Below, piece after piece: positions 15,764 to 21,343 of a DNA stretch of 37,859 nucleotides. This stretch comes from a virus. Its lineage: Duplodnaviria > Heunggongvirae > Uroviricota > Caudoviricetes. The DNA is taken from positions 64,001 through 101,859 of the IMG/VR virus record IMGVR_UViG_3300026484_000284; one strand, given 5' to 3'. The position numbers were made by a program, and so were the translations under genes. The notes under the pieces were generated by a model that made no database searches, had not been told where the DNA came from, and saw nothing but the letters and a program-made list of their open reading frames with translations. Positions within the stretch are counted from its first letter, which is position 1. Every line of letters begins with the position of its first letter.

Positions 15764-16612
15764 TTATTCTGGACATTCAAACTTAAACATCTCTTTCCAT
15801 TTCACTTCTGGGTCTATTGCTTTTCCATCAGCAAAATAGCAAGTCACGATTCCTGTGTCTGGGTCAAGTTTCGCATATTTTTGATTAAATCTCTTTTCTG
15901 TAAATAACCCTAAACTATCATTATGGATAATTATCTTAATCTTAAATTTCTTTGATGATTTAATCGTAAATTTAAAATCTTCATTATACCTATCTATAAA
16001 AACTTTATAAAAAGGATAGTCAGGTAAAGTCGGTAAAACAACCTCAACAGGTGGTGGGGGTGGTAACAATGGATCTGGTGGAACGGGATTTGGGTCAGGG
16101 ACGATACCTAATAAAATCAAAATATCGTCTTCCACTCCTTTTGCTTCAGGTAAAAATTTATTATAGAATGCTTCAATATCTCTTATTTTAACTTTTGAAG
16201 TGAAATTGACAGTTACTTCTTTTTCGATGTAACCCTTAGGAGGAACATATTGTGAATAATCTTTATCATAAGGCATAGGGAAAGCACTTATTGGTGGGAA
16301 TTTCGCTTCTTTTTTGATGATTGGGTCACCTTCAACTTTACCACCGATTTCTCCTGTCTTAGTGTCGTTGAATTGTAGGCCTTCTACATCAATTTGAGCA
16401 TTGTACTCGTGAGAAACTTCCTCAAAGTATTCTTCCATTCCATCTTCAAATATAGTTTTACAATAATTTATAAATGACTTAAAATTACACCCAGTCATAA
16501 TGTTTTTACCACTTGGGGATTGAATGTATTCATTATCAATCCATTTATGATGTGCAACTTTTAAAGGAGTTTTAAAGAATTGATTTAATACCATTTTATC
16601 CATTATTAACAT
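15764..16612 (-). CDS. Hypothetical protein with Pro-rich linker, possibly structural
   Basis: PDPNPVPPDPLLPPPPP; overlaps the end of the PAAR gene; exact start uncertain. Confidence 0.7.
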   Translation of the reverse strand: MLIMDKMVLNQFFKTPLKVAHHKWIDNEYIQSPSGKNIMTGCNFKSFINYCKTIFEDGMEEYFEEVSHEYNAQIDVEGLQFNDTKTGEIGGKVEGDPIIKKEAKFPPISAFPMPYDKDYSQYVPPKGYIEKEVTVNFTSKVKIRDIEAFYNKFLPEAKGVEDDILILLGIVPDPNPVPPDPLLPPPPPVEVVLPTLPDYPFYKVFIDRYNEDFKFTIKSSKKFKIKIIIHNDSLGLFTEKRFNQKYAKLDPDTGIVTCYFADGKAIDPEVKWKEMFKFECPE

Positions 16613-16886
16613 TAGGACTACCTTTTGCTAAAGCACCACCACAATCTATTGGGTCTCCAATTCTTGCGACAGGTTTCCCTTCTACAAACAAGTTACCACT
16701 ACCAGCAGCAATTTTTCTTGGGTGTTTTTTAGCAGGACAAGAACCAGCGTGAGGTTCTAAGTCGTCACCTAATCTGGCAACAGGTTTTCCATTTATGAAA
16801 ACACTCCCTGCTCCTGAAATTACATTCGTTGTGGGAAAACATCCGTGCCCTGTACCTGCATCCCCAATGGTTGAAATTGGTGGCAT
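16596..16886 (-). CDS. gp5.4: PAAR-repeat spike-tip protein (T4 gp5.4-like)
   Basis: GKPVARLGD and GKPVARIGD repeats; GHGCFP and PHAGSC His/Cys; GSPNV end. Confidence 0.92.
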   Translation of the reverse strand: MPPISTIGDAGTGHGCFPTTNVISGAGSVFINGKPVARLGDDLEPHAGSCPAKKHPRKIAAGSGNLFVEGKPVARIGDPIDCGGALAKGSPNVNNG

Positions 16887-17245
16887 TACACTTCCACAAA
16901 CCCAATGTGCTCAAACACATTGATTTTTTCAACTTTACCATCTTTTTCAATTTCTTTACTAACTCTTTTGCTGAATGAATACACAGGTTTTAAGTCGTGT
17001 CTTTTTAATTCCTTTTCCAAAACACCCATAAAGTATGGTGCTCCACCGATTAGGACTTTATCTATCCCATAAGTAATTGCTAAAACAGATAAGTACTCTG
17101 CTCTTTTTGTCATTTCTTCAAGTGTAGGGGCATCTTCAAAAGTCAATAATGATTTAACAGTTTCTTTTTCTGTCGGTTCGAAAACCCCTGCTGCTTTTTG
17201 TGATTCAGTCGCATTATGCTGTGTAAGGTTTAAAATGTTTTTCAT
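16886..17245 (-). CDS. Csx20-like putative ring nuclease, 119 aa (start revised from 17392)
   Basis: AAAAAGGAG RBS and class I promoter fix the start at 17245; NLTQH N-terminus; DKVLIGG...LKPVYSFSKRVSKE..DGKVEKINVFEHIGF matches the recalled Csx20 C-terminus. Confidence 0.6.
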   Translation of the reverse strand: MKNILNLTQHNATESQKAAGVFEPTEKETVKSLLTFEDAPTLEEMTKRAEYLSVLAITYGIDKVLIGGAPYFMGVLEKELKRHDLKPVYSFSKRVSKEIEKDGKVEKINVFEHIGFVEV

Positions 17246-17284
17246 AAAAACTCCTTTTTTATATTCATGTGATTTTGTATTATA

Positions 17285-17313
17285 ATTATAACTAAAAGAA
17301 AATAAAAAGTCAA
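17285..17313 (-). promoter_or_regulatory. Class I promoter TTGACT-N17-TATAAT
   Basis: -35 at 17313-17308, -10 at 17290-17285. Confidence 0.85.
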
Positions 17314-17328
17314 GTAAAATTAGACTTT

Positions 17329-17589
17329 TTATAAAAATTTTATTGGGATGCCTATCTCTTTTTCTAATTCGTGTTTTTTGATAATTGACCACAATTTATT
17401 TGACTTTTTTAAAAAATCGTAACTTCTAATTTTCGGGGCATTTACTTCAATTCCTTCAGCAACTTTTTTTTCAATTTCTTCAAGTGATTTTATATTTTGA
17501 TGAAAATAATCAATTTGTAAAAAATTTTTAATGAAAGCACCTTTGGATTCATTTTCCGGGCAAACTAAATAATCTAATTTTAACATCAT
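17329..17589 (-). CDS. Hypothetical protein, 86 aa
   Basis: ATGA overlap with the upstream gene; AAGGA RBS. Confidence 0.7.
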   Translation of the reverse strand: MMLKLDYLVCPENESKGAFIKNFLQIDYFHQNIKSLEEIEKKVAEGIEVNAPKIRSYDFLKKSNKLWSIIKKHELEKEIGIPIKFL

Positions 17590-20587: not shown

Positions 20588-21343
20588 TTAAAATATATCC
20601 AACTCCATTATAGGAGTGTCAGCATTTCCATCGCATAAATTATGCTCAAAATAAGGACACCAATTACAAAATGTATCCTTCTTAGGAAAAGATTTTGTAG
20701 TTTCAATGGTATTTATAACCTTTTTAACTTCATCTTGAATTTTTTGTTTTTCTGATTTATCAAATTCAAATATTATATTCTTATTATGCTCAATAAATTC
20801 AAAATAAAGTTTTGCTTTTCCAGCAGGAAATAATGATAATGCCACAAGATAATAAATATACAATTGGATCTTATCTTGATTTTCATTAAATCTCCCTGTT
20901 TTGTGGTCTGTAATATAAACAATTTTTTCGTTTTTATCATAATACATTAAATCTATGAACCCTATTATATCAGACTCATAATTGTAATCTTTCACTTCTA
21001 AGGTATCAATATCAAGTCCAAACCCCATTTCTATAAATAATTCATTTCTTGATTTATAGTCTTGAATAGTATTGTTTTTTAAAATTTTTTTAAGTTGCTT
21101 AAATAACATTGACTTTTCTTCGCCTTGATAAACCTTAAATTCAAAATCAGCAATTTTTTTGATTTCGTCTTTCAAATAAAGTTCTATTCCTTTATGTAAA
21201 AATGACCCCTTTTCTAAACTCCTATTCATTACGAATGGAGTTTTGATTTTATCAATGTATTGGAGTTTGAACCTATGAGGACAATTCTTATAGGTGTTTA
21301 TTTTTGAATAACTATAAGGCGAAAATTTTAAGTCCATTTTCAT
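20588..21343 (-). CDS. Cas4/RecB-like PD-(D/E)xK exonuclease with Fe-S cysteines
   Basis: SYSKINTYKNCP...H...E...GFIDL...DHKTG...QL..Y...CNWCPYFEHNLC. Confidence 0.85.
   Translation of the reverse strand: MKMDLKFSPYSYSKINTYKNCPHRFKLQYIDKIKTPFVMNRSLEKGSFLHKGIELYLKDEIKKIADFEFKVYQGEEKSMLFKQLKKILKNNTIQDYKSRNELFIEMGFGLDIDTLEVKDYNYESDIIGFIDLMYYDKNEKIVYITDHKTGRFNENQDKIQLYIYYLVALSLFPAGKAKLYFEFIEHNKNIIFEFDKSEKQKIQDEVKKVINTIETTKSFPKKDTFCNWCPYFEHNLCDGNADTPIMELDIF

Follow-up and report, generated by a model that had tools for sequence, protein, structure and literature searches.

The locus described here raises the question of whether a short gene of a large uncultured phage, encoding a protein that resembles the CRISPR-associated protein Csx20, acts against the type III CRISPR immunity of its host. 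Type III CRISPR is among the few defenses that are effective against large and nucleus-forming phages, and phages can naturally be expected to direct counter-measures at its cyclic-oligoadenylate (cOA) signal. The window analyzed in this study is a stretch of 37,859 bases that corresponds to bases 64001–101859 of a 101,859-base IMG/VR virus record with a CheckV completeness of 46%. The phage contig has a base composition of 26% G+C, and a megablast search with 8 kb of sequence against cultured phages gave no match. An initial annotation of the same DNA had read the gene as an early, cOA-degrading anti-CRISPR of the Csx20 type. The coordinates of the gene, its expression signals, and its neighbors are listed in Table 1.

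Table 1. Features at and around the phage Csx20-like gene, in window coordinates.
Feature	Position	Strand	Remarks
Csx20-like coding sequence	16886..17245	minus	119 aa; ATG 17245-17243, TAA 16888-16886
Ribosome-binding site AAAGGAG	17251..17257	minus	5 bases before the ATG; read from the sequence
Sigma-70-type promoter, TTGACT-17 nt-TATAAT, extended GTTATAAT	17285..17313	minus	11 of 12 consensus positions
PAAR-motif gene	16596..16886 (to 16888 with the overlapped stop codon)	minus	downstream of the Csx20-like gene
Gene for a 282-aa proline-rich protein	15764-16612		start overlapped by the PAAR-motif gene
Upstream gene	17329-17589		end overlapped by the 168-aa frame
PD-(D/E)XK exonuclease	20588-21343	minus	weak Cas4-domain match

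In the program-made list of open reading frames, the frame of the gene opens at a GTG codon at 17392 and spans 168 amino acids. This longer frame is an artifact: it crosses the promoter and overlaps the upstream gene, and all 63 aligned relatives start at the position of the MKxILNLTQH motif, so the shorter model of 119 amino acids is the right one. The initial annotation had claimed that a 119-residue gene with its own promoter and ribosome-binding site was hidden in the list by the start at 17392, and both parts of that claim hold, as does its assignment of the promoter to a recurring class. The window holds 11 copies of the pattern TTGAC-N17-19-TATAAT, each of them on the minus strand, compared with a chance expectation of 0.32. 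Over the whole 102-kb contig, 28 near-identical minus-strand copies are spaced along the sequence, with TTGAC[TA], a common T-rich spacer, and the GTTATAAT end, and the plus strand holds one further match to the pattern only. Loose sigma-70-like matches are no commoner than chance in this AT-rich window (56 versus about 50 expected). The whole phage fragment appears to be transcribed in one direction. The Csx20-like gene is under purifying selection, with a dN/dS of 0.17 relative to its orthologue in a related viral contig (L062). Its G+C content is 34% compared with 26% for the window, and because its GC3 lies within the range of its neighbors, the higher G+C is not read as a sign of recent acquisition.

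The gene lies within a module for DNA replication and nucleotide metabolism that encodes an 838-residue helicase, the PD-(D/E)XK exonuclease, a metallophosphoesterase, and a thymidylate-kinase-like protein. The module further includes an ATP-dependent ligase, a polynucleotide-kinase-like protein, a DnaB-like helicase, a clamp-loader-like protein, and an SbcC-like protein. The ligase is only 31–35% identical to the ligases of Cellulophaga, Vibrio, and Campylobacter phages, whose genomes measure 130–250 kb. The conserved promoters at the head of this module make it reasonable to expect that the host RNA polymerase expresses it at an early or middle stage; the word "early" reflects just two features, the sigma-70-type class of the promoter and the DNA-replication neighborhood. 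Five clustered tRNA genes (Ser, Glu, Ile, Gln, and Asn) are located on the phage contig outside the window (G000:C1, 10595–11341, minus strand).

The stop codon of the Csx20-like gene overlaps the ATG of the PAAR-motif gene in the sequence TAATG, and because of this overlap the two genes are probably co-transcribed and translationally coupled. The order of the Csx20-like, PAAR, and proline-rich genes is retained in L062, where the proteins are about 80% identical; in a more distant relative of 222 kb (L063, 56% identical) the gene is placed differently relative to the exonuclease and the helicase. It is unusual for a spike-tip (PAAR) protein to be encoded within a replication module and behind a promoter of the sigma-70 type, and such a partner would be unusual company for an early counter-defense gene. 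The statement of the initial annotation that the window lacks cas genes and an array is borne out, as the window yielded neither a CRISPR-like array nor, around the gene, any type III cas genes. The sole cas-like match among the neighbors tested is the Cas4-domain match of the PD-(D/E)XK exonuclease (E 1e-8), which is rejected as evidence of CRISPR, this protein being a phage recombination-type nuclease. Beside the phage gene, no anti-CRISPR-associated regulator (RHH, HTH, or Aca-type) and no known acr gene was recognized.

The relationship to Csx20 is seen with profiles from two independent libraries. The NCBIfam model CAS_Csx20 (NF040559) aligns residues 7–117 of the phage protein with model positions 4–122 of 124 at an E-value of 5.2e-9. 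The score of 36.5 bits misses the membership threshold, a curated equivalog cut-off of 70 bits, and the phage protein therefore represents a sister branch and not a strict Csx20 orthologue. None of the five cellular relatives tested on NF040559 reached the cut-off, and all 64 aligned family members match the model (best 2e-12). In the PADLOC library, two Csx20 profiles match with E-values of 1.3e-10 and 2.8e-10, a Csx15/20 profile matches at 1.2e-7, and a CARF-HEPN-Csx20 fusion profile matches at 2.5e-6 through its C-terminal Csx20 part. Pfam family PF27247 is precomputed for the phage protein and for every listed relative in a large protein database. In the ESM Atlas, PF27247 is the MJ1673 family (Pfam 38.1), and a cluster of 767-residue TIGR02221-type CRISPR proteins likewise carries it. 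The sole control genome in which the Csx20 model passes its cut-off is that of M. jannaschii, the species of MJ1673; no protein scored above it among 301 genomes from the phylum of a cyanobacterial MAG (G001) or among 400 genomes from the class of a gammaproteobacterium (G002).

On these profile matches, the phage protein is assigned to the Csx20/MJ1673 family (PF27247) in the broad sense. The motifs of the phage protein are N6-L-T8-Q-H10, Q16, I66-G-G-A-P70, Y89-x-F91-x-x-R94, K107, and F111-x-H113, and the polar residues T8, H10, R94, K107, and H113 show little or no variation among the 64 relatives. The protein had also been placed in a family other than that of AcrIII-1/Crn2, a viral ring nuclease, and no match to DUF1874, the domain of AcrIII-1/Crn2, was found in a Pfam scan at E-values up to 10. 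Two sub-threshold Pfam matches, DUF1878 and DUF2674 (E up to 10, in a Pfam copy without PF27247), are considered noise. A PHROGs search with the phage protein matched no family, and a sequence-profile search of the PDB gave no match at E-values up to 10.

The AlphaFold2 model, built with 64 relatives, has a pLDDT of 94.8 and a pTM of 0.84 and describes a small alpha/beta domain with a long beta-hairpin at the end. A Foldseek comparison with the Swiss-Prot section of the AlphaFold database, which the initial annotation had proposed as a check, gave one clear match, MJ1673, with an E-value of 8.3e-8, TM-scores of 0.63/0.59, and 25% identity over residues 1–118, both of the structures compared being predictions; the next match has an E-value of 0.04. 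Matches among the AlphaFold database clusters consist largely of entries under the name "CRISPR-associated protein"; one is a Csx16. Among solved structures, the top matches by Z are generic Rossmann-like enzymes, and weak fold matches include the SAVED domains of the CBASS proteins Cap4 and Cap5. The proposed dimer check also gave a positive outcome, with a homodimer predicted at an ipSAE of 0.79 versus 0.01 for the best control. Of 30 proteins solved as same-chain pairs, 20 reach this ipSAE mark, as does 1 of the 23 that were solved as single chains, a calibration that is only rough here since the prediction used a custom alignment and included AMP. Three dimer runs agreed in 100% of contacts, with a partner pLDDT of 91. 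The predicted interface includes the conserved I66-G-G-A-P-Y71 loop, a location compatible with a ligand pocket that lies on the two-fold axis in the manner of CARF dimers.

One Csx20 has been shown to degrade cyclic tetra-adenylate (cA4) fully in EDTA buffer, cutting it to linear products independently of metal, and to degrade cA3 when ten times more enzyme is used, and Csx20 has been modeled as a homodimer (Hoikkala et al. 2025, PMC12409355). Among the extrinsic ring nucleases of type III loci, Csx20 is the most common, with 78 loci, and 4 of 28,114 phage genomes carry it as well (PMC12409355). The phage protein resembles Csx20 in its full-length profile match, its PF27247 domain, its MJ1673 fold, and its small predicted homodimer, and relatives that are 45–53% identical to it hold the ring-nuclease position in type III loci. 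It differs in its subthreshold NF040559 score and in being encoded by a phage rather than a CRISPR locus, and its ring-nuclease activity is a prediction.

Mobile-element copies of csx20 with a proposed counter-defense role are likewise known from the Aca14-regulated anti-defense (anti-CRISPR) operons of Pasteurella multocida prophages and phage Pm86, described in a 2026 paper (PMC13551039). In contrast to the csx20-aca14 operon, the downstream partner of the present gene is the PAAR gene, with no RHH or HTH regulator recognized beside it. The idea of a phage-borne Csx20 is consequently less new than the initial annotation had presumed, homologues in phages being already in print (PMC12409355, PMC13551039). 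AcrIII-1/Crn2 (DUF1874; Athukoralage et al. 2020, cited in PMC12409355) is a small, dimeric viral enzyme that destroys cA4 in the same role as is proposed here, and, like the Csx20 family, it occurs both in viruses and in some CRISPR loci. Its fold and family are unrelated and its anti-CRISPR activity is proven, whereas the function of the phage Csx20-like protein is a proposal. Csx16 and Crn1, both CARF-type ring nucleases, are also among the closest known systems. Crn4b is a CRISPR ring nuclease whose phage and plasmid copies have similarly been proposed as anti-CRISPRs, but it has a new, unrelated fold and a broad specificity from cA3 to cA6 (PMC12830947).

The phage gene itself is neither encoded in nor located beside a type III locus, unlike three of its relatives. 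P0087 (51–52% identical) lies directly upstream of a Cas_APE2256 CARF effector, a RAMP protein, Cas10/Cmr2, and Cmr3, and was found in many samples (77 blocks of the collection in the index). The copy in a Synergistaceae MAG (L010, 53% identical) adjoins Cas10, four RAMPs, a sigma-54 ATPase, and a WYL-WCX regulator, and that in a Hyphomicrobium MAG (L046, 45% identical) adjoins a Cas10-like protein and RAMPs. An alignment of these three proteins with the phage copies shows no variation at N6, L7, T8, Q16, R94, and H113 and a conservation of at least 90% at H10 and G67-G-A-P70. The Csx20 profiles score the locus-encoded P0087 no better than the phage protein, so that the phage protein is no poorer a relative of Csx20 than those filling the ring-nuclease slot in type III operons.

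A mechanism can be proposed for the phage protein from what is known of Csx20. The large AT-rich phage would carry a small, homodimeric, CARF-like protein of the Csx20 family (MJ1673, PF27247), with its gene driven by one of the strong sigma-70-type promoters of the phage. Upon detection of phage RNA by the type III CRISPR complex of the host, Cas10 would synthesize cA4, which the phage protein would bind in a pocket on the dimer axis and cut to linear products without a metal ion. The cA4-activated effectors (Csx1/Csm6, Can2, Cam1, and similar proteins) would then remain off. We consider a dimeric phage cA4 ring nuclease that keeps these effectors silent to be the most likely reading, with a probability of roughly 0.6; that the protein binds and cleaves cA4, that it is made early, and that it benefits the phage are points that we infer. 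As far as sequence analysis reaches, the interpretation given by the initial annotation is supported, and the gene is a plausible candidate anti-CRISPR. No in vivo test of a phage Csx20, and no biochemical or infection data on phage members, was found in the literature.

The family to which this putative ring nuclease belongs is large and widely distributed. A word-indexed search gave 513 matches, and an exhaustive search grouped the family into 2,547 clusters at 50% identity. With two narrow peptide patterns, its presence was confirmed on at least 193 IMG/VR contigs. One copy is carried by a phiKZ-like jumbo phage, and that of Rhodothermus phage RM378 is 41% identical (E 2e-18). In a Campylobacteraceae MAG (L052, 1–906 and 2559–10366), the family gene follows gam in the early region of a Mu-like prophage that encodes a CI-like repressor, a Mu transposase, a MuB-like ATPase, and Gam; about 1.5 kb from this gene, a CRISPR-like array of 14 repeats is situated at the contig end. 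Pasteurella phage Pm86 has an unannotated 66-residue ORF (L147, 309–699, at the record end) that matches only the C-terminal half of the family, with 41% identity over residues 61–117 of the present phage protein (E 5e-9). The next ORF, of 71 residues, takes the place of the published RHH regulator Aca14, to which it putatively corresponds by that position. In this record, the csx20-like gene either appears to have a shortened N-terminus or its start was not found.

The family gene is also carried by 27 plasmids, 21 of which are conjugative. The MOBH plasmids p33Kpn22-2 of Klebsiella (L149) and Rts1 of Proteus (L150) encode a homologue of about 30% identity that is fixed between ssb-recT-exo and a cluster of MoxR ATPase, DUF3150, and VWA genes; it lacks H10 and GGAP and therefore represents a separate branch. 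Further copies are found in MAGs of Patescibacteria, Saccharibacteria, and DPANN. On two Patescibacteria contigs (L159 and L160), the gene shares an island with AbiEii genes and TrmB-like regulators (two of each), a toxin-antitoxin pair of PemK/PhD, and some small uncharacterized genes, adjoining RNase Y and ClpP; cas genes are absent from this island. Many members (P0121–P0138 and others) consist of two or three tandem domain copies or have 130–500 additional residues, and a Pfam search of the fused and tandem members found no extra domains. Two family genes each are present at L036, L045, L054, and L073. An exact-sequence look-up of L027 gave no match.

Clustering of the neighboring ORFs within 4 kb at 139 loci yielded no conserved neighbor family, the commonest real one being a TrmB-like family at 12 loci. 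The two largest neighbor clusters were dismissed as antisense shadows of the gene itself. A drifting gene context is usual for accessory and counter-defense genes. In a tree built by a quick method from 121 columns, viral, genomic, and type III-associated copies are interleaved, and since the tree is poorly resolved, no direction of transfer between phages and CRISPR loci can be read from it. The copies in Patescibacteria, DPANN, and plasmids that have no cas genes nearby suggest that the role of the family may exceed type III CRISPR.

This distribution can be placed in a wider scheme, in which Csx20/MJ1673 would be mainly a mobile-element family that type III loci have captured repeatedly and whose members degrade more than one cyclic oligonucleotide. 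Phages (jumbo phages included), prophages, and conjugative plasmids would be its carriers, and CBASS-type signaling would be blunted too. Degradation of several cyclic oligonucleotides would explain the copies in lineages without CRISPR. Repeated capture by type III loci was earlier proposed for AcrIII-1/Crn2, and RNA-sensing type III systems matter most against jumbo phages. We hold this scheme to be rather unlikely.

The cA4 ring nuclease reading has further to be weighed against a role unrelated to defense signaling, for example that of a nucleotide-binding accessory in phage replication or repair, with the likeness to Csx20 reflecting a shared Rossmann-like ancestor only. The helicase, PD-(D/E)XK exonuclease, ligase, DnaB-like helicase, clamp-loader, and SbcC-like genes around the phage gene would suit such a role, as would the place of the distant MOBH homologue next to ssb-recT-exo and the generic Rossmann-like enzymes that head the solved-structure matches. 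However, the absence of a conserved neighbor family across the 139 loci makes a fixed replication partner unlikely, and the MOBH homologue stands on its separate branch. Type III operons, moreover, contain relatives of about 50% identity in which the conserved residues are retained, and this context of close relatives weakens the proposal, which we judge improbable.

If the protein is a cyclic-oligonucleotide nuclease, its main target need not be type III signaling; a broader enzyme might act chiefly on the cA3 of CBASS or on another signal. Such an activity would account for copies in elements whose hosts lack CRISPR, and it is in keeping with the frequency of the family in Patescibacteria and DPANN, with the islands of AbiEii and toxin-antitoxin genes, with the conjugative plasmids that carry the family without nearby cas genes, and with the weak fold matches to the SAVED domains of Cap4 and Cap5. 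Csx20 itself also cut cA3 at the higher enzyme concentration (PMC12409355). Against this, type III loci with a CARF effector are the only defense systems that were found in association with close relatives, and no relative lies beside a CBASS cyclase in the loci inspected, so that this alternative is given a slim chance. The same low standing is given to a sponge, a protein that binds cOA tightly and turns it over slowly or not at all, as proposed for Csx15: the fold family and dimer would be the same as for a cA4 ring nuclease, binding and catalysis are inseparable by sequence alone, and the related CARF-type protein Csx15 is a good cA4 binder and a very slow nuclease (PMC13148439), but the Csx20 that was tested is a true multiple-turnover cA4 nuclease (PMC12409355), the near-invariance of T8, H10, R94, K107, and H113 across the 64 relatives suits catalysis, and the Csx15 paper argues that the cOA output of type III systems is too high for effective sponging and reports Csx15 to be absent from phages (PMC13148439).

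The phage gene thus stands, by its sequence, as a further mobile-element-borne homologue of Csx20, probably encoding a cA4 ring nuclease. AcrIII-1 is a viral ring nuclease that the literature describes as acting as an anti-CRISPR, and phage homologues of Csx20 have so far been noted by sequence only, in four cultured phage genomes and in the Aca14-regulated operons. As the concept is already in print, the gain is incremental: the apparent abundance of the family in viral metagenomes and the coupling of the Csx20-like and PAAR genes add slightly to what has been published. With this gene, a large uncultured phage provides a further well-defined member of the Csx20 family, and the IMG/VR contigs and clusters counted here suggest that the published count greatly understates how common the family is in viral metagenomes. 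If the proposed activity is confirmed, the Csx20 family would constitute a second widespread family of viral ring nucleases and would also provide a compact tool to switch off cA4 signaling.
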